The notes: generated from the letters alone by a model not told the origin. 64,000 nt of DNA from Candidatus Puniceispirillaceae bacterium (GCA_049890215.1 JBMHBX010000067.1:116-64115), one strand, 5' to 3'. Counted from the stretch's first letter, positions 36,771 to 63,184 are shown. Made by a program: numbers and translations.

Positions 36771-37672
36771 TGGGCAATCTCCAATAAATGATTGACAAGT
36801 TCTTCACCCGAAATGCCCCGCCACAAAGCTTGTTCAGGCACAAGAGATGTGGCTGTCATACCTGGCTGTGTGTTGACCTCAAGCATGTAGAGTTGTTGTT
36901 TGGTCTCATCATAGCGGTAATCAGCTCTGGCAACGCCCCGGCAGCCAAGCAAATGAAAGGCACTTTCGGCCCATGACAGTGCTTGTGCCTCTATCTCTTT
37001 GGGAATATCAGCAGGCAGAATATGCTTTGATCCGCCGTGTTTATATTTGGCATCAAAATCATAAAATGCTTCATCTGTGGTGATTTCTGTGACGCCAAGG
37101 GCAGTGCCATCTAGCACAGAGACTGTTAATTCACGCCCCGGAATGTAAGCTTCGGCAAAAAGCTGAGTGCCAATGGCCCACAAATCATGTGAAGGAGGGG
37201 TGCTGCCTTGCTTGATGATTTGCACCCCAAAGCTTGACCCTTCATTGACAGGTTTGACGACATAATCGCCGTCATAATCTTGAACTTGTAACAGGCCATT
37301 ATCCTCATTCAGGGTCAGGCGCTGGGGAACAGCGATACCGGCAGTGCGGAAAAGCTGACGGGAAATCACCTTATTCATAGCCACAGCAGAGGCAACCACA
37401 CCGCTATGTGTGTAAGGGATACCCATAATATTCAGCAAACCCTGAACAGAGCCATCTTCGCCAATCTGACCATGAAGTGCATTATAAACGCGGCTTGGAT
37501 TTATCTCTTTCAGGCGGGTTTGGATATCACGATCAAATTCAACCTCTATTGCATCCCATCCGGCCCCTCTTGCTGCTTTGGCACAAAAAGCGGCTGATAC
37601 GCGGCTCACCGCCGCCTCTGACGTCCAACCGCCCATCAGGACCACCACTCTTTTTGGATCTGGTTCAAACAT
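36758..37672 (-). CDS. ddl: D-alanine--D-alanine ligase
   Basis: It has an ATP-grasp fold, VVVLMGGWTSE and LEVNTQPGMT. The ORF-track start at 37855 would run 190 nt into murB, so I trimmed it to the MFEPDPK Met at 37672. Confidence 0.92.
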   Translation of the reverse strand: MFEPDPKRVVVLMGGWTSEAAVSRVSAAFCAKAARGAGWDAIEVEFDRDIQTRLKEINPSRVYNALHGQIGEDGSVQGLLNIMGIPYTHSGVVASAVAMNKVISRQLFRTAGIAVPQRLTLNEDNGLLQVQDYDGDYVVKPVNEGSSFGVQIIKQGSTPPSHDLWAIGTQLFAEAYIPGRELTVSVLDGTALGVTEITTDEAFYDFDAKYKHGGSKHILPADIPKEIEAQALSWAESAFHLLGCRGVARADYRYDETKQQLYMLEVNTQPGMTATSLVPEQALWRGISGEELVNHLLEIAQCDD

Positions 37673-38630
37673 GTCTTGCTTCCTTATCAGCAGAATCCAG
37701 CATTTTATCGTCCGGTATTTTTTCGTCCTGAGTCTGTTTTTGGGGCAGTGCGCGGCCGAGGCGCCTGATTTCCCACCTGAGGTGAATACCGCTTTTATCA
37801 AGCACTCTGGCTCTGACAGTCTCACCAAGCGCCTCAATATCCCTGGCCGTGGCATGACCGTGATTGATCAGAAAATTACAATGCTTATCATTCATACTGG
37901 CATCACCAATGCGCAGGCCGCGGCAGCCTGCTTCATCAATCACCTGCCATGCCTTATGCCCCTCAGGATTGGCAAAAGTAGATCCGCCAGTGCGCACACC
38001 CTGCGGCTGTGTTCTGGCACGCATTTGCAGCATCTCTCTCATTTCCGCTTTGATTTGTGCGCTCTCACCCTTTGTGGTTCTGAAGGTGGCTGATAAAAAG
38101 ATCATCTGCTCATCGACATTAGTATGGCGATAGGCCATGCCCATTTCGAGCGGTGTCATCTGGTGGATAGTGCCCTGTTTGTCCATCATACGCGCGCTGA
38201 TAACAACATCCTTGAATTCAGAGCCATAACAGCCTGCATTCATACGAAGCCCGCCACCTATCGTGCCTGGAATTGATACAAGGAAAGAAAGCCCTGCCAT
38301 GTTATGGCGGGCGGCAAAACGCGCAAGATCAGCATCTGTCGCGCCTGCCCCTGCGATGATATGGTCTTGCTCACACGATAATTGCGAGAAGGCACCGCAA
38401 AGCCTTATGACCGCCCCTTCAATACCGCCATCTCTTATCAGCATATTAGAGCCGGCGCCCAAAATAGTGACAGGCATATCTTTTGGAATGGCTTTCAGGA
38501 ACGCAGCCAAATCAGCTTCGTCAGCTGGTTCAAAATAGAGATCAGCCTTACCACCCACACCAAGCCATGTGCGTGTTTCAAGCACCTCATCTGTCAGAAT
38601 AAGGCCGCGCAGGGCAGTGGTATCAATCAT
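37665..38630 (-). CDS. murB: UDP-N-acetylenolpyruvoylglucosamine reductase MurB
   Basis: It has the FAD-binding region [13 protein letters not shown] and the motif GGSTFANP. Confidence 0.93.
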
Positions 38631-40057
38631 GATGCTGCTGCCCCCTTATCTAATAGAGACTCCAGTTCTGCCGGCAGACCGGCTGCCCAATTTGTGATAG
38701 AGCCGGCGCCAAGGCACATGACAATATCTCCTTTTTGGGCATGCTTTGCGACCATCTCAGCAAGTGCCTCTGGTGCTGAAAGGGCAAAAGTGTTGCGATG
38801 GCCGGAGGCTTGCAACCCTGCGACCAAATCATCTTTGCCAAAGCCGTCAATTGGCGCCTCTCCGGCGGCGTATACATCTGCGACAATGACGATATCTGCC
38901 TCATTAAAGCAGTGGCAGAAATCATCAAATAAATCTCTCAGCCGGCTATAGCGATGTGGTTGCACCACCGCGATTAATTTGCCGTCATTAACCTTCATGC
39001 GCCCTGCATTCAGGGCGGCTGAAATTTCAACAGGATGATGCCCGTAATCATCAATCACGGTAATGCCATGCGCCTGTCCTTTAATGTCAAAGCGTCTGCC
39101 AACCCCTTTGAATTGTGCAAGCGCATTGCGGATAACGTCATGATCAATGCCCATTTCAAGCGCAACAGATATAGCGGCAAGCGCATTTTGCACATTATGT
39201 CTGCCAAGCATAGGAAACCGAATATCGCTTATGATTTCAGCCTGACCCATCAGCCTGTCAGACAGATGGATATCAAACAGCATTTTATCATGATCATTTC
39301 TGATATTCACGGCCCTGACATCAGCCATGACAGAGACCCCATAAGAGATAATGCGCCTGTCTCTGATTTTCGGCATTAAGCGCTGCACCGCAGGATGGTC
39401 AATGCAAAGACTGGCAAATCCGTAAAAAGGAATAGAGGCCACGAAATGCTCAAACGCCTGTTCAAGCTTTTCATAATTGCCATGATGGTCAAGGTGCTCA
39501 GGGTCGATATTTGTGACAATGGCAGCCGTTGGCTTAAGGCGCGAAAACGACCCGTCACTCTCATCTGCCTCTACGACCATCCATTGCCCGGCGCCTAATT
39601 TAGCATTACTGCCCCAGCTATGAATAATGCCGCCATTGATAACGGTGGGATCAATCCGGGCCGCATCAAGCAAGGTTGCAACCAGTGAGGTTGTTGTTGT
39701 TTTCCCATGTGTGCCTGCGACCGCGACAGACCAGCGAAGGCGCATAAGCTCACCTAACATTTCAGCGCGATGCACCACAGGGATAAATCTCTCACGCGCT
39801 GCCATTAATTCTACATTATCAGGCTGAATGGCAGTTGAGATCACAACAATGGACACATCATTAATATTGCTTGCCTGTTGCGGGATCGTCACAGCGATCC
39901 CTTTTTCTCGCAGGCGTCTGACATTATTATTTTCAGCAATGTCAGATCCCTGAACCTGATATCCTAATTCTGCCAGAATTTCGGCAATCCCACTCATGCC
40001 GATCCCGCCGATACCGGTGAAATGGATTTTCCCAATGCTAAGAGGCAGAGCGGTCAT
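38627..40057 (-). CDS. murC: UDP-N-acetylmuramate--L-alanine ligase MurC
   Basis: Motifs [12 protein letters not shown] and GTHGKTTT are present. Confidence 0.95.
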
Positions 40058-41142
40058 TGAACCTCTCCTGTGACAGCAGATGTTGATAAAGGCAGGCCAG
40101 TCAGCCCGGCAATGGCAGAGGCGGCGCCTTCCTCGGACAGCGTTTTGGCAGTTTCTGCCATTTTGGTGCGTTTATCTGGCTGGCTGATAAGCACAGATAA
40201 GATAGCCGCCAGCTTGTCAGCGCTTGCGTCTTTTTCAGCTATCAGATAAGCGCCGCCCTGATCAGATAATTGTCTGGCATTGCCTGTTTGATGATCATCA
40301 AGCGCCCCTGCAAAAGGCACTAAAATGCTTGGTCTGCCGGCGCTTGCAATCTCTGCAACTGAAGAGGCACCTGCCCGGCTGATGATGATATCAGAGCGGC
40401 GATATAAATCTGCCATATCATGATAAAAACGCGCGACCTCTGCTTTAACGCCGAGCGCCTTATAGGCTTGTTGTAACAGGCTGACATGCTCATCACGGCA
40501 TTGTTGTGATATGCGGATTGTGCGCTTGTCGCTTGGGCGTAGTTGTGAAATTGCCTCTGGTACAATATCGGCGAAAATCTGGGCGCCAAGAGAGCCGCCT
40601 ATGATGGTGATATGACAGCTATCTGATGGCTGATAGGCAGCGATTTCATGGAATTGGCCTCTGACAGGCAGGCCGGTAATTGCCTGCGGGCATGTTTGCG
40701 GCGCGCCTTTGGTATCAGCAAAGGTAAGCGCAATATGATGGGCAAATTTACCAAGCAGACGATTGGCACGTCCCATAATGGCGTTTTGTTCATGCAAAAT
40801 ACATTTTGCACCCATCAGGCGCCCTGCCATCAAAGGTGCCAAAGACGGATAACCACCAAAGCCAATCACACAAGCAGGACGTGACAGGGCAAAACTGGCA
40901 AGTGATTGCAACAGGCCAAATGCAAGGCGTATCAGCCCTGTAAGCTTTGAAAGGAGCCCTGAATTGAAAGGAGACGCAGAGCTGATTTGCCGATAGGTGA
41001 TTTTGCCATCCACCATCGCAACGCCTCTTTTGTCCGTGAATAAAATCACCTGATGACCAGCCGTCTCAAGGATTTCGGCAACCGCCAAAGCAGGGAAGAT
41101 ATGGCCACCTGTTCCACCGGCGGCAAGAATAACCTTAGCCAT
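40054..41142 (-). CDS. murG: Undecaprenyldiphospho-muramoylpentapeptide beta-N-acetylglucosaminyltransferase MurG
   Basis: It has the N-terminal motif [13 protein letters not shown] and lies in the murG position of the dcw order. Confidence 0.93.
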
Positions 41143-42247
41143 CCAAGCCTCCCTCTCTTTGTCTTCGTCTGGTCAAAGCAAGCAGCATCCCAATTGTAAT
41201 ACCACTGGCAAGCAAAGAAGAGCCGCCATAGCTGATAAGTGGCAAAGTCATGCCTTTGGTAGGGATCAAATCAACTGATGAGGCCATATGGATGGCAGCC
41301 TGCAAGCCAAATTGCATGGCAAGGCCGGCCCCGGCAATCAGGCAGAATAAATTATCACCTGCCGCAGAGCGCTCAAATCCGCGAAAGACGGTAAAGCCAT
41401 ATAGCGCAATAATGCCAAGACATACCAACAGCCCATATTCTTCGGCAGCAACAGAAAAAATAAAATCAGCATGCGCATCAGGCAGATATTCTTTAACTTT
41501 GCCATCACCTGGCCCAACACCCAAAAAGCCCCCATCTGCAAATGATCTGATCGATAATTCAGATTGCATCGAGCCGCCATCAAAGAATTTGGTAATGCGT
41601 GATTTTACATGGTCCAGATAATGATAGGCCGCAAATAAGGCGATAGGGGCAAGGCCAATGGCGATTAGAACAAGCAACAAAGGCATGCCTGCCAAAAATG
41701 TCTGGAAACCCCAGGTCATTGCGATAACAGATGTCATGCCAATATCAGGTTGCAAAACCAATATGGCAATGATGATCCCTGCCAGGCTTGTTGCCCATGC
41801 CCAGCCCGGGAAATCGTCATCTTCACGCCATAAAGATAACAACCACGCACAGACAACAGCAAAAAGAGGCTTCGCAAATTCAGACGGCTGTAAATTCACA
41901 GGGCCAATGGTAATCCATCTTGTTGCCCCTTTTACTTCCGGACCAAGGATGAGTGTAAGGCTCATGAGCCCAATCACCCCTAACAGGCCGATCAAAGATA
42001 AAATCCGAATAAGGCGCGGACTCATGAAAGACAGAACAAAAATCGCGACCGCCGCCGGTGCCAGATAGATAAGTTGGCGCCAAACAAAATGGAATTCAGG
42101 CAAAGAAATGCGTGTGGCAACAGGCGGGCTTGCTGCCATGACCATTAAGGTGCCGATCACCATTAATAAGATAGCGGCCATAAGAAGCCACCTGTCGACT
42201 GTCCACCACCAAACACCCAAAAGAGATCTGTCTGTTCTACCGAGCAT
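41135..42247 (-). CDS. ftsW: SEDS-family peptidoglycan polymerase FtsW
   Basis: It is polytopic with about 10 TM segments. SEDS motifs QPSEFAK and LPLISYGGSS are present. Confidence 0.93.
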   Translation of the reverse strand: MLGRTDRSLLGVWWWTVDRWLLMAAILLMVIGTLMVMAASPPVATRISLPEFHFVWRQLIYLAPAAVAIFVLSFMSPRLIRILSLIGLLGVIGLMSLTLILGPEVKGATRWITIGPVNLQPSEFAKPLFAVVCAWLLSLWREDDDFPGWAWATSLAGIIIAILVLQPDIGMTSVIAMTWGFQTFLAGMPLLLVLIAIGLAPIALFAAYHYLDHVKSRITKFFDGGSMQSELSIRSFADGGFLGVGPGDGKVKEYLPDAHADFIFSVAAEEYGLLVCLGIIALYGFTVFRGFERSAAGDNLFCLIAGAGLAMQFGLQAAIHMASSVDLIPTKGMTLPLISYGGSSLLASGITIGMLLALTRRRQREGGLDG

Positions 42248-43565
42248 GGCTGACCTCCTTTAAGGGCTGATGATGTGTGTCAATAAAGGCCTTGGTCAGC
42301 TTGGCAAAATGATCACCCCGCATGCCAAAATTGGCGAATTGATCAAATGAAGCCGCTGCCGGAGATAACAGAACAACTTCAGTCCCATCCAACATATCGG
42401 TTGCATGGGCAAAAGCCTCATCAAGTGTGTCATGATAATGGCAGGTGATATGATCTTTGGCCTGTTCATAAAATGCTTTGGCAGATTCACCAAAGAAATG
42501 GGCTTTGCGTATATGATGAAAATAAGGGGTGCAGGCAGACAGACCCTCTGCTTTGGCGCGCCCGCCGGCAAGCCAGATTATGCTTTCAAACGCAGATAAG
42601 GCCTTGGCGGTGGCATCCCCATTTGTTGCTTTGGAATCATTGATAAAGGGCGTGCCATTGTGGCTGCCAACCGGTTGCAAGCGATGAGGCAGACCAATAA
42701 AGGAGGTTATTGCCTGTTCCATGATATCGCCTGAGACCCCGAAATGACTTGCTATTGCAAGGGCAAAAGCAATGTTCTGCTGATTATGAAGGCCGGCAAG
42801 ATACGGGTTTTGACATAAAGAGGATGGCAGTGATTTGCCGCTAATGGCCTCAATCTGACAGGATAGGTTATCATGCGCCCACGCAAGGACGTCTTTCATA
42901 ATTGGCCCTTCATCACCTATTAGCGCAAGACCGTCCGGCCTTATTGTGATGAGGCTTTGTTTTTTGGCGCTGATATAGCCGTCAAGGCCGCCATGCCGGT
43001 CAAGATGATCCGGCGTAATATTCAGCAATGCTGAAACCTTTGGTGCCAGAGATGGTGTGGTTTCAAGCTGATAGGATGATAATTCCAGCACAGTGAAGCC
43101 ATCTGTTTGTTCCGGCAATGCGCATAAAGGTGTTCCCAGATTGCCGCCAATACCCACCGACAGACCTGCTTCTTTGAGGATATGGCCTGTCAGGGCTGTT
43201 GTTGTGGATTTGCCATTTGTGCCGGTGATGATGATCATCTCACCCCAATTGCCGGTACGAAGGCCAAATTCGACTTCTGAGATAATTTCCACCTGATGAT
43301 CTTGCGCCATCTTGGCAACAGGATGGGGGGCAGGGTGGTGATGGGCAATGCCAGGGCTGAGGATAAGCGCCTCAATCTGAGAGAAATCCCACTCTTGGAA
43401 GGATATAAAATCATGATCTGCAATCGTCTCATAAGCTGTCATATGGTCATCATCAATGACACAAGATATCCCTAAATCACGCGCACGCGCATAGGCCGCA
43501 CGTCCTGACAGGCCGGCGCCGAAAATCGCGATATGCTGAAAAGATGTCTTATGCCTCATTGTCAT
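42237..43565 (-). CDS. murD: UDP-N-acetylmuramoylalanine--D-glutamate ligase MurD
   Basis: Motifs IFGAGLSGRA and GTNGKSTT are present. The start was trimmed to the Met at MTMRHK, because the ORF-track start would overlap mraY by 88 nt. Confidence 0.9.
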   Translation of the reverse strand: MTMRHKTSFQHIAIFGAGLSGRAAYARARDLGISCVIDDDHMTAYETIADHDFISFQEWDFSQIEALILSPGIAHHHPAPHPVAKMAQDHQVEIISEVEFGLRTGNWGEMIIITGTNGKSTTTALTGHILKEAGLSVGIGGNLGTPLCALPEQTDGFTVLELSSYQLETTPSLAPKVSALLNITPDHLDRHGGLDGYISAKKQSLITIRPDGLALIGDEGPIMKDVLAWAHDNLSCQIEAISGKSLPSSLCQNPYLAGLHNQQNIAFALAIASHFGVSGDIMEQAITSFIGLPHRLQPVGSHNGTPFINDSKATNGDATAKALSAFESIIWLAGGRAKAEGLSACTPYFHHIRKAHFFGESAKAFYEQAKDHITCHYHDTLDEAFAHATDMLDGTEVVLLSPAAASFDQFANFGMRGDHFAKLTKAFIDTHHQPLKEVSHAR

Positions 43566-43582
43566 GATGATGAAATGGCCTC

Positions 43583-44671
43583 CTATCTCAGCTTTAGGGT
43601 TGACAGGGCGACAAGCGCCAAAATGACAGAGATGATCCAAAACCGAATGACGATGGTCGGTTCTGCCCATCCCTTTTTCTCAAAATGATGATGAAGGGGC
43701 GCCATCAGGAAGATACGCTTACCTGTTAATTTGAATGAGGCGACTTGCAGGATAACAGAGACGGTTTCAAGCACAAATAAACCACCTGTGATGGCAAGAA
43801 CCAATTCGTGACGTGTGGCAACTGATATCACCCCCAAAGTGCCGCCAAGGGCAAGCGAGCCTGTATCTCCCATAAAGACTTTAGCAGGCGGTGCATTAAA
43901 CCATAAAAAGCCAAGGCCGCCGCCAATGAGCGCCCCGCATACCACCGCCAATTCACCTGTTCCGGCAATGTAGTTTATTTGCAGATAATCAGCGAAGTTC
44001 AGATTACCTGACAAATAGGCAATCAGGGCAAATACAGAGGCCGCTATCATCACAGGCACAATGGCAAGCCCGTCTAGCCCGTCTGTCAGATTGACAGCGT
44101 TCGATGCGCCAACAATGACCACAAGGGCAAAGGGCACATAAAAATAAGACAGATATAATAGAGTGTCTTTCAGGAAAGGCAGTGCAATGCCATAACGCAA
44201 TTCTTCTGGTGACAGTTCCACCAGATATAAGGTCGCAAGCAGTGCTAACATAATTTGCAGCATAAATTTCTGATAAGAGCGCAAACCAGCTGAGCTTCGT
44301 TTTTTCAGCTTTAGCCAGTCATCAATAGCGCCTATGGCGCCAAAGCCGGTTGCGACAATCAGAACAGGCCATAAATAGCTGTTATCGAGCGGTACCCATA
44401 ATAAGGTAGATATCACAAACACCCCTAAAATCAGCAAACCGCCCATGGTTGGTGTGCCGGCTTTTGTTAATATATGACTTTCAGGCCCGTCTGAGCGAAT
44501 AGGCTGACCTTCTGCCTGATGCGATTTCAGCCATCTGATAAAGGCCTCACCAAATAACAGGCTCAGCAACAACGCGGTCATGACAGCGCCGCCTGTACGA
44601 AAGGTCAGATACCGGAACAGATTTAGCGGCTGAAACTGATCAGCAAAGGGCAATAGAAGGTCAGGTAACAT
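43583..44671 (-). CDS. mraY: Phospho-N-acetylmuramoyl-pentapeptide transferase MraY
   Basis: It has FRYLTFR and [13 protein letters not shown] and is polytopic. The start was chosen at the Met 6 nt after GGAGG. Confidence 0.95.
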
Positions 44672-46076
44672 CATGCGCCTCCGCTTTATCATTTTGTATG
44701 GTAAGGGCGCTCAGCAATCGCGCCATCTGCGGCGCACCAGAGCCATTTGACCCTTTGATGAGAATCAAGTCGCAATCTGCTAACAGGCCATGCAGCTTAT
44801 CCTTTGCCTCATCTGCAGAGCCAAAGGCAGAGATATCGCCGTCTATGTGAATAGAAGAAGCAAGCGCTGACATTGCAGGCCCAATCAGAATAAGACGCTG
44901 AGGGCCGGTTGCCCTAATCAGCGGGATCAAAGATTGATGCGCCTCATCACTCATATGCCCTAATTCAAGCATATCTGTCAGAACAATGCCTTTTTTGGCA
45001 TGTGTCAGGCTTGCAATATGCTGTAAAGAGGCTGCCATAGAAGCAGGGCCGGCATTGTAGCTGTCATTGATAAATAAGGCAGTTTTCTGGCCTAGATTTA
45101 CAAAGCTCTGATCACCGCGCCCTGTGACCTCTTGTAACTGTGCCAGCTTTGTTTCTGCCATCTGCCATGGCAGGGATAAAGCATGTAAAGTCGCAATCGC
45201 AATCATCGCTGTGGTGGCATGATGAGGGGCTGACAAGCCAAGGGTGAAAGTCAGACTCTCGCCGCTTAAGTGGTTATAAAGGCTCAATGACTGGCCTTTT
45301 TCAAGACTGGCCTGTTTGATAAGCTGTATATCTGCCCCTTTGCCTGTCCCAAAAGTGATGAGGTGAAGGCCTTTGGCTTTGGCTTTATCACGCAAAATAT
45401 CGAAATGCGCATCATCATAAGGCAAAATAGCTGTGCCATCTGTCATGCCATCAAAAATCTCAGCTTTGGCACAAGCAATATCACCAAGGCTGTCAAAATG
45501 CCCGATATGGCTATTGGCGATTTTGGTAATGATCGCAACATCACCATGATAAAGATACGAAAGAGGGCTAATCTCACCTTTGTGATTCATGCCCATTTCC
45601 ATGACAATCAAATCACAATCATCTGGTGTTCTTGCCATCGATAGGGGGGCGCCAATGTGATTATTATAATTACCCCGGCTGGCATGGCAGTTGCCATAAC
45701 ATGATAAAATAGTATCAAGCGCCTCTTTGGTGCTTGTTTTGCCAACAGAGCCTGTGATGGCAATTTTCTTTGCCGTTGTTTGCGCCATGGCGGCTTTGGC
45801 AATATCATGCAGTGCTGATAATGTATCAGGGACTTTTAACTGAGCGCAACATGCGCCGTCAAATTGACGTGATACAAGTGCGCAGTGGCCCATCGTTAAA
45901 TCAGCCACAAAGTCATGGCCATCATGATGATTGCCTTTCAAGGCAATAAACAGGCCTGTTTTATCAAGATTACGATGGTCAATTTCCACCTGTTCAAGTG
46001 GCAAAACAGGCGCTGGCCCGTGCCAGATGCCAGAGGTAATTTGCGCCAAATCTGAGGCTGTCCAATTTGTGATCAT
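44661..46076 (-). CDS. murF: UDP-N-acetylmuramoyl-tripeptide--D-alanyl-D-alanine ligase MurF
   Basis: It has the Mur ligase P-loop [10 protein letters not shown] and lies between murE and mraY. Confidence 0.92.
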
Positions 46077-47560
46077 GCACCCCCCTTTGCCGGCAAAAAG
46101 GCAAGGGCTGCGCGCGCTACCGCCGCATCATCAAAAGGAAGCGTCTCATGACCTACGGTTTGTGTGGTCTCATGCCCTTTACCGGCAATCAAAAGACAAT
46201 CACCTTCTTTTAAGGAATCAATGGCCACTTGGATAGCAGCTTTACGATTAGCGATTTCTGTGAATTTTTCCGGTTTGTCTGCCATGATGGCAGCGCGGAT
46301 AGCGGCCGGATCTTCACTTCGCGGATTATCATCAGTGATATAAATATGATCAGCAAATGCAAGCGCCTGTGCGCCCATCATCTCTCTTTTTCCGGCATCT
46401 CTGTCACCGCCGCAACCAAACAGGACATGTAAATCACCTGTTGTCTCTTCGCGCAATAATCGCAAAGCATTGGCAAGCGCATCAGGCGTATGGGCATAAT
46501 CAACCAGAATACGGGCGTTTAACGGGTGGCCATGAACAGGCTGCATGCGCCCTGCAATGGGCTGTAAATGCGGCAGAGCGCCAAGAGCATCATGAAGTGA
46601 CAGGCCCGACAAATGCGCAAGCAAAGCGGCCAATATTGCATTCTCAGCCTGAAAACGCCCCATCAAAGCAATCGGGTATTGATAGGATTTGCCGTCATAA
46701 ATAATATGTGAATCAAAGCCATAATCTCTTGGCTTGAGGTCTTTTATCTGCAGATCTGCCCCATCAGAGGCACCGATGGTTTTGATCACAAGAGGCCTGT
46801 CTTTGATAGCCTTTGTGATTTTTTTACCATAAGGGTCATCATGATTAATCACGGCCGCACCACCATCTGGCAGAAGGTGGGTAAACAGGCGCAATTTTGC
46901 CTTAAAATACTGGTCCATTGTGCCATGGTAATCAAGATGATCCCGGCTCAGATTGGTAAAGCCCGCAACATGTATCGGCAAAGGGGCAAGCCTGTCTTGC
47001 GCTATGCCATGAGATGAGGCCTCTAGTGCAATGCAACGCACCGACTGGCGTGCCAGCTCATCTATGACACGGAACAAATCTTCAGCGCCGGGCGTGGTAA
47101 GCCCTGATGTGGCAAGATGCGGTGTATCAAGGCTTTGTCCTGATTGTGCTGTTTTTGCGCCTAATGTGCCGATAGAAGCGGCCGGCCAGGTAGCTCTTTG
47201 CCATATTTGTCTGACAAATTCTGCCACAGATGTTTTGCCATTTGTGCCGGTGATGGCAATCTGGATGGCAGGGCGTTTTGGCCAGAACCTGGCACAGGCA
47301 AAAGCATAATCATAACGCAGTTGTGGCGAACACAGATAAGGCACAGATAAGCCATCTAACGCAGCCTCGCCGATGATAGCACAGGCGCCATTATCAATCG
47401 CCGCCTGAATATAATCATGCCCGTCATGATCATGACCTTTGATGGCAACAAATACCATGCCGGGGCGAATGCGCCGTGAATCAGCGCTAATGCCTGTAAC
47501 CCCAACAGACGCCTCAGGCTCATTCATCATGATGTCAGGGAACAGATTACAAAGCTTCAC
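46073..47560 (-). CDS. murE: UDP-N-acetylmuramoyl-L-alanyl-D-glutamate--2,6-diaminopimelate ligase MurE
   Basis: It has GTNGKTS and the DAP-specificity-type motif DNPRSEDP. Confidence 0.93.
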   Translation of the reverse strand: MKLCNLFPDIMMNEPEASVGVTGISADSRRIRPGMVFVAIKGHDHDGHDYIQAAIDNGACAIIGEAALDGLSVPYLCSPQLRYDYAFACARFWPKRPAIQIAITGTNGKTSVAEFVRQIWQRATWPAASIGTLGAKTAQSGQSLDTPHLATSGLTTPGAEDLFRVIDELARQSVRCIALEASSHGIAQDRLAPLPIHVAGFTNLSRDHLDYHGTMDQYFKAKLRLFTHLLPDGGAAVINHDDPYGKKITKAIKDRPLVIKTIGASDGADLQIKDLKPRDYGFDSHIIYDGKSYQYPIALMGRFQAENAILAALLAHLSGLSLHDALGALPHLQPIAGRMQPVHGHPLNARILVDYAHTPDALANALRLLREETTGDLHVLFGCGGDRDAGKREMMGAQALAFADHIYITDDNPRSEDPAAIRAAIMADKPEKFTEIANRKAAIQVAIDSLKEGDCLLIAGKGHETTQTVGHETLPFDDAAVARAALAFLPAKGGA

Positions 47561-49247
47561 TGCCTACCTCCTCTTTGCCAATCCGAATATTTGGCACAAG
47601 ATTCTGGCGAATTTCTGGCGCTGTTTCATCAACAGGCAAGACACCAAGCTTTGGGGCGATTTGTTCAACAATTTGTTTGACCGCAGGCGCTGCCACCCAG
47701 CCCGCTGTGGCATAATTATGAGAGAATTTTTGTCCCTTTGGCTCATCCACCATGACAAAAATCAGATAGGCCGGATCATGGGCAGGGAAGGTGCCAACAA
47801 ACGAGACCATATTTTTCTTTTTGTTATAGCGGCCATTTTCCACTTTTTCCGCAGTCCCTGTTTTGCCGCCGACAAGATAGCCGGGCGCTTCGGCAAAATT
47901 ACCTGTGCCAGCTTTATGAGAGACCACAAGGCGCATCATGCTTCTCACAGCTTTGACATGTTCTTCTGAAAAGATACGTTCTTTCATAATAGGGTCTTGC
48001 GGATTGCGTTTCAGCAAAGTTGGCTGACGGTAAATGCCGTCACCTGATGCTGCCGCGATGGCAGCAGAGGCATGGACAGGCGTTACCGAAATGCCATGAC
48101 CAAATGATATCGTCATAGATTGCACACGTTCCCAATAGCGCGGTGGCAGGGGATTTGATACTTCGGGAAGTTCCAAAGACAGCCTGTCAAGAAGGCCAAG
48201 GCGCCTCATATAAGCTTTTTGGGTCTCTCCGCCAATGGCATCAGCTATGCGCGCAGATCCGATATTTGATGAATAAACCAATATTTCTGACAAGCTCAAA
48301 TCACGCTTCATCATATGGAAATCAGCAATGCGATGACCGCCAATAAATAGCGGCTTTGAGACCTGATAATGTTGGCCCATTCTGGCCGCGCCTGATTCAA
48401 GTGCGATGGCGGTATTCAGCACCTTGAAAATGGAGCCCATTTCAAAAACACCTTTGGTGGCTCTGTTGAAGCGGGCATCATCAACCGCAGCGCCAAAATG
48501 ATTTGGGTTGAAATCTGGCAATGAGGTCAGGCCAAGCAATTCACCAGTCTTCATATCAAGAACCAAACCGGCGCCGCCTATGGCCTCAAAGGCGGTGATT
48601 TGTTTTTGGATTTCTGCGCGCAATATGGCCTGCACACCAACATCAATGGATAAAGCCACAGGCTTGCCTTCTTTGAGGCTTGCATCAAATTGTTTTTCAA
48701 TGCCTGCCAGACCATTGCCGTCAATATCCACTGTGCCAAGGATATGGGCGGCTTCATTGCCATGCGGATATAGCCTTGTTTTGGTGGGCGTCATGGCAAT
48801 GCCAGGCAGGCCAAGGCGCATGATCTGTTTTTGCCTGTGATGGGTCAGGCGTCTTTCAAGCTCTATATAGCGTGTCTTTTTGGCAAAATGGCTTAACAAG
48901 CGCTCTTCAGACCATTTCGGCAATAAAGGCGCCAGCTTTTCAGCTGTTTCAAACGGGTCCAGAATTAATTTGGGATCAGCATGCAAAATCATCACAGGCA
49001 AAGAGGTGGCAAGCACTTTGCCATGCCGGTCTGTGATGATACCGCGTTCAATGGCCGCTTTTTGCGGGCTTCTGAATTGTGAGCGTAAATCGGCATTTGT
49101 AGCAAGATAAAAGGCTTTTGCGCCAATGGTGCCAAAACATAAAAAGGCCAAAAATGACCCGAACCATAGCCGCCCGACCGCAATACGCTTTGATTGCGCC
49201 GGTTGCGGCTTTGATGGCCAGATGATTTTACGCCATGATTGCGCCAT
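47547..49247 (-). CDS. ftsI: Division-specific class B penicillin-binding protein FtsI (PBP3)
   Basis: It has an N-terminal TM segment and the transpeptidase motifs SIFK (SxxK), SSN and KTGT. Confidence 0.93.
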   Translation of the reverse strand: MAQSWRKIIWPSKPQPAQSKRIAVGRLWFGSFLAFLCFGTIGAKAFYLATNADLRSQFRSPQKAAIERGIITDRHGKVLATSLPVMILHADPKLILDPFETAEKLAPLLPKWSEERLLSHFAKKTRYIELERRLTHHRQKQIMRLGLPGIAMTPTKTRLYPHGNEAAHILGTVDIDGNGLAGIEKQFDASLKEGKPVALSIDVGVQAILRAEIQKQITAFEAIGGAGLVLDMKTGELLGLTSLPDFNPNHFGAAVDDARFNRATKGVFEMGSIFKVLNTAIALESGAARMGQHYQVSKPLFIGGHRIADFHMMKRDLSLSEILVYSSNIGSARIADAIGGETQKAYMRRLGLLDRLSLELPEVSNPLPPRYWERVQSMTISFGHGISVTPVHASAAIAAASGDGIYRQPTLLKRNPQDPIMKERIFSEEHVKAVRSMMRLVVSHKAGTGNFAEAPGYLVGGKTGTAEKVENGRYNKKKNMVSFVGTFPAHDPAYLIFVMVDEPKGQKFSHNYATAGWVAAPAVKQIVEQIAPKLGVLPVDETAPEIRQNLVPNIRIGKEEVGSEAL

Positions 49248-51283: not shown

Positions 51284-51365
51284 GTAACCTCTTGCATTAG
51301 TTGAAAAAAACAAAAATTGTTCATGAAATGTTCTGAGTTATTGCGCAAAAACAGGGAAAGAAAGA

Positions 51366-51750
<385 letters not shown>

Positions 51751-56594: not shown

Positions 56595-57794
56595 TTACGC
56601 CTGTAACGCTGTCATGATTCCGCGCAATTCTGCCAATCCGCGAAGCCTGCCAATCAGAGGATATCCCGGGTTGGACTGCCTGTTAAAATCTGACAATAAG
56701 CGGTGACCATGATCTGGTCTCATTGGTATTTGATGATCATGGCGTCCTGCCTGTTTGCGCTTTTGTTCTTCTTCTAACAACGCTTTGATGACCGCTACCA
56801 TATCTGTGTCACCACCAAGATGTTCTGATTCAAAAAAGCTATGACGAACGCCATCTTTAGGATCATGTCTTTTGGTGTTTCTCAGATGGACAAAATGGAT
56901 ATGCGTGCCCAGTGTTTTTATGAAATCGAGAGGATCAAAATCAGGATCAACACCAAGAGAGCCGGTGCAAAAGGTAATGCCATTCGCCTTGATATTCACC
57001 TGTTCCATCACATAATGATAATCTGACTGACAGGACATTATGCGCGGCAGGCCAAGCAGGGGAAAGGGCGGATCATCAGGATGACAACAAAGGCGCAGCC
57101 CCAATTTGTCAGCGACAGGGGCAACTTCTGATAAAAAATCTATCAAATTTTGCCGCAATTGCTCAGATGTCATTCCATCATAAACAGACAGATGCCTGCG
57201 CACATCGTCCAAAGTCCAATTGTCATTTGCACCAGGCAATCCGGCAACAATATTTTGCGCAAGGTGCCTTTTTTGCGCATCATCCATCTTGCGATAACGG
57301 GTCTTTGCCATCTCATAATTATCTGATTCATAATCATCGGCCGCACCCTGCCTTTGCAGGATAAAACAATCAAAGACCGCAAAATCAATAATATCAAAAA
57401 ACATAGCCTCACCGCCATTGGCAACCGGCCCGGACAAGGTGGTTCTTGTCCAGTCCAGAACTGGCATGAAATTATAACAAATCACATCCAGTCCACAGGC
57501 CGCCAGATTCTCAAGACTTTGTTTGTAAGCAGCGATATGGGCTTTGAAATCAGTGTCTTTGCGCTTGATGGATTCAGATACAGGAAGGCTTTCTACCACA
57601 TCCCATTTAAGGCCTGTCTGTTTGCCGTTTTCAAAGGCGATCTCTGCCTGCCTTTTTTTGATATCATCTATAGGCCAGATGGCACCCGGGCGGTGTTGAT
57701 GCAGGGCGCTTACAATGCCTTGTGCGCCGGTTTGTCTTATCTCATCTATTGAGATGTTATCCTGTGGCCCAAACCATCGCCATGTTTGTTTCAT
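56595..57794 (-). CDS. uxuA: Mannonate dehydratase UxuA
   Basis: It has the canonical N-terminus MKQTWRWFGP. I trimmed the ORF start to this Met. The length of about 399 aa fits. Confidence 0.9.
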   Translation of the reverse strand: MKQTWRWFGPQDNISIDEIRQTGAQGIVSALHQHRPGAIWPIDDIKKRQAEIAFENGKQTGLKWDVVESLPVSESIKRKDTDFKAHIAAYKQSLENLAACGLDVICYNFMPVLDWTRTTLSGPVANGGEAMFFDIIDFAVFDCFILQRQGAADDYESDNYEMAKTRYRKMDDAQKRHLAQNIVAGLPGANDNWTLDDVRRHLSVYDGMTSEQLRQNLIDFLSEVAPVADKLGLRLCCHPDDPPFPLLGLPRIMSCQSDYHYVMEQVNIKANGITFCTGSLGVDPDFDPLDFIKTLGTHIHFVHLRNTKRHDPKDGVRHSFFESEHLGGDTDMVAVIKALLEEEQKRKQAGRHDHQIPMRPDHGHRLLSDFNRQSNPGYPLIGRLRGLAELRGIMTALQA

Positions 57795-58001
57795 GCTTCT
57801 TTCCTTATCAAACGCCCTGTCTGTGAAAAGCCAAACGAACAAAAATCTAGTCATGTTCTCGCTAACAAGTCAAATCTCATGCACGTCAAATGCCATCGGG
57901 GGCATAAGCTTGCCCTATGTGATGGTTTGGGTCATGCTATGGCTCTGATCAAAATGTTCAGTCCTTATTTTTGCGCAACATAAAGAGGCCTAAAAACCAT
58001 C

Positions 58002-59324
58002 ATGTCACATATCGTACATATCGGGGTTGGCAATTTTCATCGGGCCCATCAGGCAGATTATATTGCTAAGGCAAATGGGTGGACAATGTCAGCTGTGGTG
58101 ATGAGTAATGCCGGCCTTTTACAACATATGCAAAGATATGATTATCGCTACCTGCTTGGCATATGGGGTAATGACGGCTTGGATTGCCGCCTCATAGACG
58201 CCTATCAAAAGCTATATCTTGCAGGCCGGGATGAGGCTGAGATCATAGAAGACCTAGCGTCTGAGGCAACCAAGATTGTCACATTGACCATCACAGAAAA
58301 AGGCTATTTTCTGAATAAGTCACAAGATGGCTTGTCTTTGGTTTCAGCGCCTGTCAGCCATGATTTGCAATTCGATCATCCGCAAACGGCAATTGGTATG
58401 ATGGCCAAGGCGCTCCATTTGCGCGCTATGACGCATCAAGAGCCAGTATCTTTGCTAAGCTGTGATAATCTTGTGCAGAATGGCCAAAAATTACAGATGG
58501 TGCTCAGGCAATTTATGCATCACAAATATCCCGCCTGCCTGCCATGGTTTGATCTTCATGTCGCTTGTCCAAATGCCATGGTAGACAGAATCACTCCAAA
58601 GCCGGATAAACAGGCTATGACAGATATTTGTGCAAAAGCCGGTCTTGATGATTTCCCTGTGGTGGTAACAGAGGCTTTTTCAGAATGGGTCATTGAAGAT
58701 AAATTTGCCAATGACAGGCCGGAGCTTGAAAGATATGGCGTGGAATTCACCCCTGATGTAAGCGCTTTTGAAGATCGCAAATTGCGCATGCTGAACGCCG
58801 CACACTCTTATTTGGCTTATGCCGGCCTGTTATCAGGCTATCAATTTATCCATGAAGCGATGGCAGACAGGCGCCTCAACAGCCTTGTCAGTCGTCTTTG
58901 GGAAGAGGCAGTGCCAACATTGAAACAAGAGGCAGCGCGTTCATCTGATAGATATGCGGCTGCATTGCGGGCGCGATTTGCCGTGTCGGCAATGCGTCAT
59001 CAATGCGCGCAAATCGCCATAGATGGTAGTCTGAAGATGACACAGCGCCTTGTGCCAATTATCACAAACCGCCACTATTCTGCTTTATCATCACTTGCCT
59101 GCTATGAGGCGGTGGCTGCCTGGCTTGCTTATGTATATTATGTCCTGTCCTCAGGTGATCATCTGGATGACGGGCATGCAGATGATATAACAGCCATGTT
59201 TGACGCCTCAGACAGCAAAGCCCATTTTTGGTCAGCGCTTTTATCCTACATTCAGCTTGATAGCGCACATCATGCGCCGATTATTCAAAATGCTGCCACT
59301 CTATATGCCCAAAAACAAATCTGA
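58002..59324 (+). CDS. uxuB: Mannitol dehydrogenase family oxidoreductase, probably fructuronate reductase (D-mannonate oxidoreductase)
   Basis: It has the N-terminal HIGVGNFHRAHQA dinucleotide-binding motif of the mannitol dehydrogenase family and lies divergent to uxuA. Confidence 0.75.
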   Translation: MSHIVHIGVGNFHRAHQADYIAKANGWTMSAVVMSNAGLLQHMQRYDYRYLLGIWGNDGLDCRLIDAYQKLYLAGRDEAEIIEDLASEATKIVTLTITEKGYFLNKSQDGLSLVSAPVSHDLQFDHPQTAIGMMAKALHLRAMTHQEPVSLLSCDNLVQNGQKLQMVLRQFMHHKYPACLPWFDLHVACPNAMVDRITPKPDKQAMTDICAKAGLDDFPVVVTEAFSEWVIEDKFANDRPELERYGVEFTPDVSAFEDRKLRMLNAAHSYLAYAGLLSGYQFIHEAMADRRLNSLVSRLWEEAVPTLKQEAARSSDRYAAALRARFAVSAMRHQCAQIAIDGSLKMTQRLVPIITNRHYSALSSLACYEAVAAWLAYVYYVLSSGDHLDDGHADDITAMFDASDSKAHFWSALLSYIQLDSAHHAPIIQNAATLYAQKQI

Positions 59325-59594: not shown

Positions 59595-60131
59595 ATGAAA
59601 AACCTAACAATTGTAAAAAGCTCTGTAATTGCATTAGCGATGTTGTCAGCACCGGCTCTTGCGCAGGACTCAGCAGGTGTGCCGTCACTGGCAGATGTGA
59701 TGGGCGCTATGTCATCTGAAGAAGTAACACAGATGGAAGGCGGCGTTTCTGAAGAAGGCGCATTGTCTCTTGATATGGATGTCACCGTTGAATCAGCCGT
59801 GAATGAAGCTATCGAGGATGGTCTGATTACAGCTGATCAGGCAGAAGATGCCGCAGCGTCTCTTGAAATTATTCAGGCAAATGCTGACTTCTTCAATTTC
59901 GATATTCTTGATGCCATTGGTGAAGTGATTGAGAGCGGCGAATTCTCAGTAGAAGAAATCCGTCAGACTCTGGAAGGCTTCAACACATTGTCAGACGCTG
60001 GTAAGGCGCTTGTCGGTAACGAAGAATTTGATGCGACAGACGTAAGTGATGACTCACTTTTCAATCAGCTATCAGATGCTGATAAGCAAATCGTGCTAAC
60101 ACAGATGCCTGTTGTTGGTGACGACCAGTAA
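59595..60131 (+). CDS. Secreted, extremely acidic hypothetical protein (paralog A)
   Basis: AAGGTGG precedes the ATG at 59595. The signal peptide ends ALAQ. The mature part has about 37 Asp/Glu and 3 Lys/Arg by my count. It is clearly a paralog of the next gene. Confidence 0.7.
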   Translation: MKNLTIVKSSVIALAMLSAPALAQDSAGVPSLADVMGAMSSEEVTQMEGGVSEEGALSLDMDVTVESAVNEAIEDGLITADQAEDAAASLEIIQANADFFNFDILDAIGEVIESGEFSVEEIRQTLEGFNTLSDAGKALVGNEEFDATDVSDDSLFNQLSDADKQIVLTQMPVVGDDQ

Positions 60132-60162: not shown

Positions 60163-60753
60163 ATGCGTAAATTCCTTATTACCGCTGCTGTTGCAGCATT
60201 CACATTGCCAATGGGCGCAATGGCACAAGACGCAGAAGTACCGGCTCTTGCAGATGTTGTAAGCGGTCTTGATGCGACTGAGCTTTCAGACATGGAAACA
60301 TCAGTAACCGATATTGGCTCTATTTCTGCCGATTTTGATGTTGCCATTGATACAGCAGTGGCAGATGCGATTGAAGAAGGTCTCATCTCTGCTGATGAGG
60401 CAACGGACGCAGCTGCCTCATTGAGCATTATTAGCGATAACGCCCAGTTCTTTGATTTCGACATCATCGAGGTGGTTGGTGAAATTATCCAGTCTGGTGA
60501 ATTTGATATTGCTGATATCCGTCAAACACTTGAAGGCTTTAACAGCTTGTCAGATGCTGACAAGGCAATTGTAGGCCAGCAATCATTTGACACCTATGGC
60601 GGTTATTACACATATGCCTGTGACCCAAGCTGTACCTCTCAGCAAATCGCAGACAGAGACCCAGCTGCAAAAGCGCAGTTTGATTCATTGTCAGATGCAG
60701 GTGAGACAATTGTCCTGACACAAATGCCATTGATACAAGACGAAGACGGCTAG
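60163..60753 (+). CDS. Secreted, extremely acidic hypothetical protein (paralog B, with a Tyr/Gly/Cys insertion)
   Basis: A GAGGAG RBS is present and the signal peptide ends AMAQ. It is roughly two-thirds identical to paralog A over a ~76-residue core by hand alignment. Confidence 0.7.
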   Translation: MRKFLITAAVAAFTLPMGAMAQDAEVPALADVVSGLDATELSDMETSVTDIGSISADFDVAIDTAVADAIEEGLISADEATDAAASLSIISDNAQFFDFDIIEVVGEIIQSGEFDIADIRQTLEGFNSLSDADKAIVGQQSFDTYGGYYTYACDPSCTSQQIADRDPAAKAQFDSLSDAGETIVLTQMPLIQDEDG

Positions 60754-60768
60754 GATCGCAAAAAAAAC

Positions 60769-60819
60769 GGGCAGGTACAAAGTCTGAGGCAATCCTACTG
60801 GTGCCTGCCCCCTTTTTTT
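60769..60819 (+). terminator. Hairpin + T7 between paralog B and the barrel gene (candidate attenuating terminator)
   Basis: A 10-bp stem GGGCAGGTAC/GTGCCTGCCC (one G-T pair) encloses a 22-nt loop and is followed by CC + TTTTTTT. Confidence 0.5.
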
Positions 60820-60843
60820 GGCTGAGAGATAAGGTATAAATTC

Positions 60844-62157
60844 ATGTCATATAATATTAAAGCTACCATCGTAGCTGCGTTTTTAATGTTGGCCGCGTTG
60901 CCAATGAGTGCATCAGCCCAATCTGTTTCAGATGCTGATGTTGCAAATCTGCGTGCTGAAGCACAAGATTTGTTGGTTGAAAAGCAGCCAGAAGAAGCAT
61001 TGCGCAAAATTGAACAGGTCATTATTGCAAGACCAACTGATTTGGCGGCACGTTTCTTCCGTGCGCAAATCCTTGTATCTCTGGGCCGCGGCGCCGAAAT
61101 CAGAGATGAATTGCAATTGATGACAACTTTGAACATCCCGGCAGCGGATAAAGAAAAGGCCCGTCAATTGGTTGCGGTCATTGACAAGGCAGGTCGCCGT
61201 TTTTCAGGTACCATCACCCTCAAGGCAGGCTTTGGTTACGGCAATAACGTAAACTCATGGCCAAATGGCGGTGAGACAACCAACTCAAGCGGTATTAACG
61301 CTGCGTTGGGTGACCCTGTCTATAAGAAATATGAGTCAATTGATGATACCATCAGACAAGCTTCTGTCTCATTCAGCGGCTCTTATCTCTTGTCAGAAGA
61401 TCGTAGCCTGAAGACAAATTTTGGCCTGACAACAAGCCAGAAAGAGGCAGGCGATACAGTGTCAATCGACAGCAAAGTTGTTTCAGCACGCCTTGGCCTG
61501 CAAAAAGACTTTGAGACAAACACAACTGTCAAGGTAAACGCCTCTACAACCTCTCTTGATCGTGTGAATGACAAAGACGGCACAGCGGTGACCTCAGACC
61601 TTGATTATGATATTTATGATTTAGATATCTCTCAAAAGGTATTCGGCTCAACAGCGATTGGTGCAAAATACGCAACAAATGCAAGCCGCAATTCAAAGAT
61701 TGCTAACGCCAAGAATTCAGATTCAAACACAAATACAACATCTGTTTATGTCGGTCGTCCGATTGGCGGGACAGCCTATGGCCGCTTGACCTATTCAATG
61801 GCAAAGGCACGCGCTGATCTGGCAAATGAGACTGCCAAGAAAAAGGTCAATAAAGACACCAATACCTTGTCAGCTCTTGTTGTGAAAGTGTTGCCAAATG
61901 ATCAAAGGATTATTGCGACAATCAGCTTTTCAGAGACAGAACATCTGAAAAAGAAGATCAGCAACAAAAACCGTCTTGATAAAAAGAGAAGTCTGACACT
62001 TAGCTATAACATCAAAGGTGATGCTTTATGGTCACGTCTTGAAGGGTTTGATTTCAGTGTCGATGGTTCCATGTCAGAGACAAAATCAAATCAGGCCTCA
62101 GCGCGTGTTCATGCGAAGACAATCATGTTGAACGTATCACGCAAATTTGATCTGTAA
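60844..62157 (+). CDS. Outer-membrane protein: N-terminal TPR-like helical domain + C-terminal beta-barrel (Slam/DUF560-like, tentative)
   Basis: The signal peptide ends ASAQ. Residues ~30-115 are helical and TPR-like. From ~120 to the end I count about 14 amphipathic alternating-residue segments, running from TITLKAGFGYG to AKTIMLNVSRKF. Confidence 0.6.
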   Translation: MSYNIKATIVAAFLMLAALPMSASAQSVSDADVANLRAEAQDLLVEKQPEEALRKIEQVIIARPTDLAARFFRAQILVSLGRGAEIRDELQLMTTLNIPAADKEKARQLVAVIDKAGRRFSGTITLKAGFGYGNNVNSWPNGGETTNSSGINAALGDPVYKKYESIDDTIRQASVSFSGSYLLSEDRSLKTNFGLTTSQKEAGDTVSIDSKVVSARLGLQKDFETNTTVKVNASTTSLDRVNDKDGTAVTSDLDYDIYDLDISQKVFGSTAIGAKYATNASRNSKIANAKNSDSNTNTTSVYVGRPIGGTAYGRLTYSMAKARADLANETAKKKVNKDTNTLSALVVKVLPNDQRIIATISFSETEHLKKKISNKNRLDKKRSLTLSYNIKGDALWSRLEGFDFSVDGSMSETKSNQASARVHAKTIMLNVSRKFDL

Positions 62158-62347: not shown

Positions 62348-63184
62348 ATGGCACTGTCATCCACCTACAGAAAACAGATAGCAGCATTTGTGGAAAGCCG
62401 CGCGATGACAGCTTTTATCACAGCGCTGATTTTGGTGAACGCTGTCACACTTGGCATGGAGACAGATAAAGAGCTAAATGCCTCTTTTGGCAGTGCCTTA
62501 TATTGGGCTGATAAGGTGATATTGGTTATATTTACATTTGAGCTTACTTTGAAATTCATTGCCTATCGGTGGTCTTTTTTTCGCTCCGGATGGAATTTAT
62601 TTGATCTTGCGATTGTAACAATTGCCTGGCTGCCAACTTCGGGCGCCCTCACAGTGCTTCGTGCGCTTCGTATTTTGCGTGTTTTACGTCTCATTTCAGT
62701 TGTGCCACAAATGCGGCGCGTAGTGGCTGCGATTGGTCATTCTATACCTGGCATGGTTTCAGTCGTTGGTGTGCTTGGCCTGATATTTTATGTATCTGCC
62801 GTTCTGGCAACAAAGCTGTTTGGCACGCACCCTGACCCTCATATGCAGGAATGGTTTGGTACGATTAGCGCCTCTGCCTATACCTTGTTCCAGATCATGA
62901 CACTTGAAAGCTGGTCTATGGGCGTGGTGCGACCGACTATGTATTTATTTCCCTTTGCATGGGCTTTCTTTTTGCCCTTTATCATTGTGACAAGCTTTGC
63001 TGTGTTGAATTTTTTTATCGGCATTATTGTGGATTCTATGCAGATGGCGCAAAAGCTCGAAGCACAGGAAAGTGGTGATGATGATGATATGCCAATGACG
63101 AAAAAAGATTATCGTGATCTTGTGATGAGAATCGAACAGATTGCTTCACGCCAGTCAGACAAGCCGATTATCAAAGGTAAGTAA
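62348..63184 (+). CDS. Bacterial voltage-gated sodium channel (NaChBac/BacNav family, single 6-TM domain)
   Basis: S4 carries RALRILRVLR, with four Arg at every third position. The pore filter is FQIMTLESWSMGVVRP. A C-terminal coiled-coil-like tail is present. The protein is 278 aa. Confidence 0.9.
   Translation: MALSSTYRKQIAAFVESRAMTAFITALILVNAVTLGMETDKELNASFGSALYWADKVILVIFTFELTLKFIAYRWSFFRSGWNLFDLAIVTIAWLPTSGALTVLRALRILRVLRLISVVPQMRRVVAAIGHSIPGMVSVVGVLGLIFYVSAVLATKLFGTHPDPHMQEWFGTISASAYTLFQIMTLESWSMGVVRPTMYLFPFAWAFFLPFIIVTSFAVLNFFIGIIVDSMQMAQKLEAQESGDDDDMPMTKKDYRDLVMRIEQIASRQSDKPIIKGK

Follow-up and report, generated by a model that had tools for sequence, protein, structure and literature searches.

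A DUF560-related outer-membrane protein beyond the reach of Pfam and its strictly linked small acidic secreted proteins in the SAR116 lineage: a candidate type 11-like translocon

Among the secretion routes of Gram-negative bacteria, type 11 is the latest to have been named and, to our knowledge, has been studied almost solely in host-associated bacteria. SAR116 is among the most abundant alphaproteobacterial clades of the surface ocean, and we report here on a gene for a predicted outer-membrane protein (OMP) located in a 64,000-nucleotide stretch of DNA from Candidatus Puniceispirillaceae bacterium (GCA_049890215.1 JBMHBX010000067.1:116-64115; this whole stretch is hereafter called the window), together with two genes for small acidic secreted proteins found just upstream. 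With 437 amino acids (aa), this OMP is somewhat shorter than the Neisserial Slams, which have about 490 aa. Slams are defined by an N-terminal tetratricopeptide repeat (TPR) domain and a 14-stranded DUF560 barrel (PMC5449769). The OMPs of Slam or type 11 secretion systems (T11SS), e.g., Neisseria Slam1 and Slam2, Xenorhabdus NilB, HrpB and Haemophilus TepS, carry PF04575 (DUF560, 'SlipAM') with PF24575 (TPR_Slam), and like the window OMP they combine a Sec signal peptide with an N-terminal TPR domain in the periplasm and a C-terminal barrel of 14 strands. Marine alphaproteobacterial OMPs of DUF560 type are represented by cluster 3 of the T11SS (Rhodobacteraceae/Roseobacteraceae), mostly without co-located beta-barrel cargo (Grossman et al. 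2025, PMC12282271); unlike the window OMP, they match PF04575, and genes for DUF1194, glyoxalase and thymidylate synthase are found together with them (PMC12282271), but not at the flanks of the SAR116 genes. That survey left open what marine T11SS OMPs transport and used PF04575-positive proteins only (PMC12282271), so the OMP family described here was invisible to it. What is new here is a Pfam-invisible subfamily related to DUF560 whose strictly linked partners are of a novel type.

The OMP gene and the parts of its product are located in the window as follows.

60844..62157, plus strand: OMP gene, ATG start, 437 aa plus stop
60844..60918, plus strand: OMP signal peptide, aa 1-25, ...LPMSASA/QS, of signal peptidase I (SPase I) type without lipobox, as read from the sequence
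60931..61194, plus strand: periplasmic TPR-like helical domain, aa 30-117, five helices in the AlphaFold2 model (~88 residues)
61201..62151, plus strand: 14-stranded beta-barrel, aa 120-436, strands from AlphaFold2, remote DUF560/SlipAM homology

Over its full length, the protein matches an NCBI entry from a metagenome-assembled genome (MAG) with 100% identity, and this entry bears just the name 'tetratricopeptide repeat protein [Candidatus Puniceispirillaceae bacterium]'. Its N-terminus reads MSYNIKATIVAAFLMLAALPMSASA followed by QS, with a hydrophobic core and then an A-x-A site, and there is no cysteine in the whole protein, which therefore is not a lipoprotein. The AlphaFold2 model was built on 26 homologues and reached a mean predicted local distance difference test score (pLDDT) of 81.6 and a predicted template modelling score (pTM) of 0.68, with pLDDT mostly 85-97 in the barrel and low values for residues 1-27. 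The initial annotation had proposed a signal peptide, about 90 residues of helical, TPR-like sequence and some 14 strands; the reading of a Sec/SPase I peptide agrees with the first of these, and the model with the other two, since it holds five helices at aa 30-117 and, counted on this predicted structure, exactly 14 long strands. These strands are antiparallel, start immediately after the helical domain and run over residues 120-135, 166-182, 189-202, 210-222, 227-241, 249-266 and 270-283 (strands 1-7) and 294-307, 311-324, 337-350, 354-372, 375-391, 402-415 and 423-436 (strands 8-14), while extracellular loop 1 is long, less confident and contains a small low-confidence hairpin. The assignment of the helical part as TPR-like, also made in that annotation, is based on weak Pfam matches that remain below the gathering score, namely to TPR_19, matched by 18 of the 26 members (best E 7.7e-5), and to TPR_16, matched by 10 of them. 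The TPR domain also contains the most conserved stretch of the OMP, P64-DL-x-ARFFR-x-Q-x-L...GRG-x-E at aa 61-100, with a mean column conservation of 0.74-0.85.

The relation of this OMP to DUF560 rests on profile comparisons. Membership of PF04575 is set by the Pfam gathering cut-off of 22 bits, which the window OMP does not reach; indeed, the Pfam scans gave no PF04575 match for the OMP or any of 35 relatives, only sub-threshold TPR matches and noise (T6SS_VasJ, Omp85, OMP_b-brl, Autotransporter). When the family profile was searched against 1.84 billion representative proteins, 195 matches were obtained at E<=1e-3, of which ~45 are full-length family members (to E about 1e-12) and the weaker tail consists of TPR and barrel proteins of 430-550 aa with E 1e-7 to 1e-4. 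Twenty of these tail proteins were scanned with Pfam: four lie above the PF04575 cut-off (P0229 with 48.1, P0230 with 44.4, P0219 with 29.0 and P0201 with 22.4 bits), P0219 passing TPR_Slam too, and four others lie just under it (P0216 with 20.7, P0222 with 19.7, P0235 with 17.8 and P0239 with 16.5 bits), and no other barrel family was matched consistently among the 20. The four proteins above the cut-off were reached by the family hidden Markov model (HMM) at a library-wide E of about 1e-7 to 1e-5. Alignment of profiles with hhalign, for which E-values are pairwise and were judged against reversed controls, gave the following results.

Family alignment of 43 sequences against the P0230 group: 99.5%, E 5e-23, 369 columns
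Family alignment against eight proteins (PF04575 recorded for seven): 99.9%, E 4.3e-34, 391 columns
Family alignment against seven single DUF560-type proteins: 98.9-99.8%, E 3e-17 to 5e-28, 371-399 columns
Barrel only: 97.7%, E 2.4e-12, 286 columns
TPR only, against PF04575-positive proteins: 96.8%, E 2.5e-10, 77 columns
Reversed-template controls: 2-4%, E 0.012-0.023, 94-130 columns

The alignment to the eight proteins is collinear over query residues 20-436, and the reversed control of the barrel-only comparison gave E 0.012. In addition, the invariant positions of the family coincide with DUF560 motifs in these alignments: strand 1 is followed by G-x-G-Y-x-(D/N)-N-(V/I)-N, residues 377-379 carry R-x-D, residues 415-416 are S-N, and F435 is the C-terminal Phe. 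Judged by these profile alignments, the window OMP is best regarded as a true but remote DUF560/Slam homologue over both domains, and its subfamily lies beyond the reach of the Pfam PF04575 model. The resemblance to a Slam/DUF560 translocon claimed by the initial annotation thus stands as remote homology (the 99.9% alignment above), whereas the direct PF04575 match that it had named as a check was not obtained and the neighbours are not Slam-type cargo; no other family scored strongly in its place.

The subfamily is small. Among 5.8 billion proteins, the OMP is represented by 44 clusters at 90% identity, and a two-pattern scan of one genome for each of the 185,579 GTDB species, which detects close relatives only, found nine OMP loci (from a narrower alignment), all of them in Puniceispirillaceae/Puniceispirillales or in otherwise unclassified alphaproteobacterial or proteobacterial MAGs. 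The gene is also present in the cultured SAR116 strain HIMB100 (locus L002; loci are numbered in this way throughout). All carriers of the subfamily seen so far belong to SAR116 or are related alphaproteobacterial MAGs.

As is found for Slam/T11SS OMPs, the OMP gene adjoins genes for Sec-exported proteins, which in the window are two paralogues.

59595..60131, plus strand: small acidic secreted protein, paralogue 1, 178 aa, with the ATG start used by NCBI
60163..60753, plus strand: small acidic secreted protein, paralogue 2, 196 aa, signal peptide ending ...GAMA/QD

Paralogue 1 is 100% identical to the protein P0045 at 178 aa (an alternative GTG start is located at 59586), has a signal peptide that ends ...APALA/QD and a mature mass of ~16 kDa, and contains 37 D+E for 3 K+R and no C, H, W or Y. 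Paralogue 2 is 49-52% identical to it and bears an insertion of ~18 aa, with two Cys within, ahead of the last LSDAxxxIV repeat. Both mature proteins are of 16-18 kDa and extremely acidic, with 37-38 acidic and 3-4 basic residues and neither His nor Trp, and a net charge of -19 to -35 was found in 28 of the 28 homologues examined. Their signal peptides, read from the sequence, are of SPase I type and have no lipobox. The AlphaFold2 model of the small protein is all-helical (pLDDT 70), and two motifs are strongly conserved, NA(E/D)FFNFDIL and TLEGFNxLSDAGKxxVG, of which the second recurs in part close to the C-terminus. Neither Pfam nor NCBIfam gave a family at threshold, and a Foldseek search of the Protein Data Bank (PDB) gave nothing below E 2.8. 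These proteins form a conserved, uncharacterised family of secreted proteins, possibly with a role in cation binding or surface chemistry. Note that a lipoprotein cargo of the surface lipoprotein (SLP) type was considered and rejected, as paralogue 1 has no Cys and paralogue 2 none near the cleavage site.

Using an HMM on six-frame open reading frames (ORFs), a homologue of the small protein was found directly upstream of the OMP gene, in the same orientation, in the window as well as in L001-L008, L010-L014 and L020, and in the last of these the linkage is kept with an OMP that is only about 29% identical to that of the window. The reverse search, starting from the small protein, found the OMP directly downstream in L021 and L022. 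Altogether, the OMP follows the small-protein gene or genes directly in 17 of the 17 loci with both sides visible (L009, which starts at the OMP gene, is outside this count). One or two copies of the small gene are present per locus, and two-copy loci besides the window are L002 (HIMB100), L005, L006, L007 and L008. Since the outer flanking genes differ from locus to locus, only these genes are conserved, and the OMP with its upstream small gene or genes constitutes a cassette of two or three genes that is conserved in the SAR116 lineage. Nothing of the Slam cargo type was found beside it: the adjacent proteins are predicted to be all-helical and have no Pfam match above threshold and no PDB fold match, no other conserved neighbour was found, and there is no beta-barrel cargo candidate within about 4-6 kb in any locus examined.

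Several other features of the cassette and its surroundings can be mentioned. The small-protein gene looks frameshifted in L001 (5348-5937) and L014 (3260-3893), where the match to the HMM is spread across two or three frames, which could be an assembly error or decay; the record name of the L014 contig gives cov_0.098933. In the 300 nucleotides before the first small gene of 14 loci, no shared upstream motif (e.g., a Fur box) was seen by eye, the sequence being just AT-rich, and Rfam gave no riboswitch or small RNA near the cassette. In L021 (1-2834), the cassette adjoins mobile-element-like Phage_AlpA, NYN and N6_N4 methyltransferase genes, in L003 (4145-5593), a D5_N primase-like gene stands beside it, and in L012 (about 3090-3170), it is preceded by an apparent tRNA gene (by eye); these neighbours hint that the cassette may occupy variable or island regions.

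The fold of the OMP allows two other functions to be considered. In a Foldseek search against the PDB, the first ranks went to 14-stranded monomeric porins, OmpG (2x9k, 2iwv, 2f1c) and CymA (4v3h, 4d5d), with E 3e-11 to 1e-9 and template modelling (TM) scores of 0.59-0.71 normalised by target, and 16- to 18-stranded porins and PelBC ranked below them. Given that OmpG and CymA share their strand number with the window OMP and are its best PDB fold matches, the OMP could be a 14-stranded solute channel of this kind with a TPR handle, and the acidic proteins, whose 24% D+E is compatible with low-affinity cation binding, would be cation or metal shuttles of an import cassette; several T11SS cargoes do serve metal or haem acquisition (PMC8406197, PMC12282271). 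However, OmpG and CymA are solute channels without a TPR domain, their identity to the window OMP is just 9-11%, and no sequence-profile relationship to them was seen here (no Pfam match to OmpG families, e.g., PF16946); the fold matches reflect a generic 14-strand fold, while the profile evidence points to DUF560 over the full length, including the TPR domain that porins lack. The partners, moreover, have no His or recognisable metal-binding motif (and paralogue 1 no Cys either), and the cassette has no conserved neighbour that is a TonB-dependent receptor, an ABC importer or a metal regulator, so we regard an import function of this type as distinctly unlikely. Note that no entry described as Slam is present among the 50 PDB matches listed for the OMP, and the fold search is therefore unable to test Slam membership; sequence searches of the PDB with the OMP, as single sequence or profile, gave just TPR-level noise (HsiE1, E 0.1-0.8).

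The second function would be that of a synthase-dependent exopolysaccharide export porin of the PgaA/BcsC/PelB type, which has the TPR and barrel architecture in common with our protein. PelBC appears at Foldseek rank 11, some relatives of the OMP are weakly similar to the TPR parts of PgaA and BcsC (NCBIfam), and a few PgaA homologues bear a PF04575 assignment (PMC8406197). Nevertheless, the PelBC match has a TM score of 0.36-0.39 and a root-mean-square deviation of 12 A, the model has 14 strands and not 16, the TPR domain is only about 90 residues long, and no glycosyltransferase, deacetylase or c-di-GMP receptor is conserved nearby, the small acidic proteins being the sole conserved neighbours. 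Polysaccharide synthase genes were likewise absent from all of the loci. This reading is barely credible, and it was rejected on strand number and gene context.

A further element lies between the small-protein genes and the OMP gene.

60759..60821, plus strand: GC-rich hairpin GGGCAGGUAC...GUGCCUGCCC between small-protein genes and OMP gene, flanked by an A-run and a U-run

The RNA fold of this hairpin has -28.5 kcal/mol and z -2.3, and together with the U-run it resembles an intrinsic terminator or attenuator; a simple terminator scanner did not report it, apparently since the loop exceeds the 8-nt limit of the program. Hairpins of unrelated sequence occupy the same position in seven loci (L001, L003, L004, L010, L011, L012 and L013), and this arrangement is consistent with small proteins that would be made in excess over the OMP.

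From the architecture, the DUF560 homology, the strict linkage and the helical, acidic and non-lipidated nature of the partners, we infer export and recognition in the following manner. The OMP would be a divergent Slam/DUF560 translocon, similar to the T11SS, that carries the small acidic proteins out of the periplasm, either to the surface or into the medium, a reading to which we give a probability of about 55%. The small acidic helical proteins would be exported by Sec and cut by SPase I, then captured in the periplasm by the conserved TPR groove of the OMP, in which the stretch of aa 61-100 may be the docking site, and finally transferred to the cell surface or medium, either through the barrel or along it. 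Meanwhile, the hairpin and U-run would hold OMP transcription well under that of the small proteins, and such a combination of low OMP and high small-protein transcription is what a catalytic translocon with an abundant cargo would lead one to expect. In this scheme, we infer that the small proteins are the cargo. Soluble SPase I cargo is already handled by a T11SS (HrpB/HrpC), and in this respect HrpB resembles the system proposed here (PMC8406197). In addition, the marine cluster 3 OMPs rarely co-occur with beta-barrel cargo, and other targeting domains have been raised as a possibility for them (PMC12282271).

A number of observations weigh against this translocon. Every verified T11SS cargo has a C-terminal eight-stranded barrel, which is thought to be the targeting signal (PMC5449769, PMC8406197, PMC12282271), whereas the candidate cargo here is small, predicted to be all-helical and extremely acidic, and has no TbpBBD or lipoprotein-C eight-stranded barrel, the adjacent proteins showing no such domain in the all-helical model, Pfam or the PDB fold search. 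The window OMP remained undetected by PF04575 and PF24575 at the thresholds tried, with neither model matched at E<=1 by the OMP and 25 relatives, PF04575 unmatched at E<=0.01 by 10 more distant family members, and an NCBIfam scan of the OMP that yielded nothing useful. Charge complementarity between the TPR domain and the partners was not found either, as the TPR net charge is -4 to +4 across the family and the barrel net charge -18 to +25; because the TPR domain is not basic and the barrel charge swings across the family, no electrostatic argument holds. Distant relatives of the OMP, namely P0132, P0159 and the PF04575-positive P0230, adjoin large FecR-domain proteins instead, and since these relatives pair differently, the partner type is not conserved across the superfamily. 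Finally, gene adjacency cannot tell cargo from accessory factor.

This last point leads to the alternative in which the OMP is still Slam-like and the small proteins are periplasmic accessory factors (adaptors, chaperones or plugs on the TPR domain) for a cargo encoded elsewhere. Neisseria Slam1 acts on cargo encoded away from it, which counts in favour of this alternative, and the location of the most conserved part of the OMP in the TPR segment suggests a fixed protein partner. The partners also lack the eight-stranded barrel of verified cargo (PMC5449769), and in marine cluster 3, linkage of the T11SS genes to cargo is often absent (PMC12282271). However, no accessory factor is known to be required in the T11SS, the OMP being described as necessary and sufficient (PMC8406197), and the terminator-like hairpin implies an excess of the small proteins, which would suit a cargo better than a stoichiometric adaptor. 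Two diverged paralogues are likewise more typical of cargo, and the loci examined offered no barrel-bearing cargo candidate in the approximately 4-6 kb around the cassette. We consider an accessory role rather unlikely and keep the small proteins as the candidate substrate of the translocon. Because they lack the eight-stranded barrel of all verified Slam cargo, recognition would in that case have to differ from that of the canonical T11SS. As an extension of this, a T11SS-like system with a new class of cargo, i.e., small, extremely acidic, all-helical, non-lipidated, barrel-less and recognised via the invariant ARFFRxQ...GRGxE groove of the TPR domain, is put forward tentatively, at somewhat less than even odds.

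The FecR-linked OMPs provide a comparison within the superfamily. P0230 (L016 and L017), P0159 (L018) and P0132 (L019) have the same layout of TPR domain and DUF560-like barrel as the window OMP, and P0132 and P0159 are full-length matches of the family profile (E 3e-34 and 3e-16, respectively), but their partner is a FecR-domain (PF04773) protein of 494-878 aa and not a small acidic helical one. The corresponding loci are located at 5001-8964 of L016, 237-4200 of L017, 1076-5329 of L018 and 466-3274 of L019, and in L018 the cluster also includes a gene for a POTRA_2 protein and a number of N_methyl genes of pilin-like type. The marine survey does not mention FecR (PMC12282271), and FecR-domain proteins may represent a second class of partner, so far undescribed, for Slam-like OMPs, which suggests a superfamily with several partner classes. 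The weak profile matches P0197, P0208 and P0248 show yet another arrangement, with an N-terminal SPOR (peptidoglycan-binding) domain, a TPR domain and a C-terminal barrel.

Altogether, these results suggest that the superfamily is wider than Pfam shows. An OMP strictly linked to a small helical protein is a testable candidate for a second mode of recognition, and if the proposed barrel-less cargo is real, Slam-type translocons would not be confined to barrel-bearing substrates and there would be a concrete candidate for what marine T11SS-like OMPs export. The Pfam census of DUF560 would then undercount the superfamily, to which lineages paired with FecR-domain proteins also belong.

The remaining observations concern the neighbourhood of the cassette in the window. 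Downstream, positions 62348-63184 (plus strand) encode a 278-aa single-domain Ion_trans protein (PF00520, E 1.6e-41) that resembles a bacterial voltage-gated cation channel and is not kept beside the cassette in other loci. Upstream, divergent genes of the UxuA mannonate dehydratase and mannitol-dehydrogenase families are located at 56595-57854 (minus strand) and 58002-59324 (plus strand), and a Mannitol_dh gene is also found within about 5 kb of the HIMB100 cassette (L002, 11715-13127) and not in other loci. The sole Rfam match in the window is a bacterial RNase P RNA of class A (RF00010, 317 bits) at 51364-51747 (minus strand), and an ARAGORN scan of the 64 kb detected no tRNA genes. Further upstream, positions 34633-49247 (minus strand) hold an unbroken run of 13 co-directional ORFs of 276-566 aa, tightly packed or overlapping.

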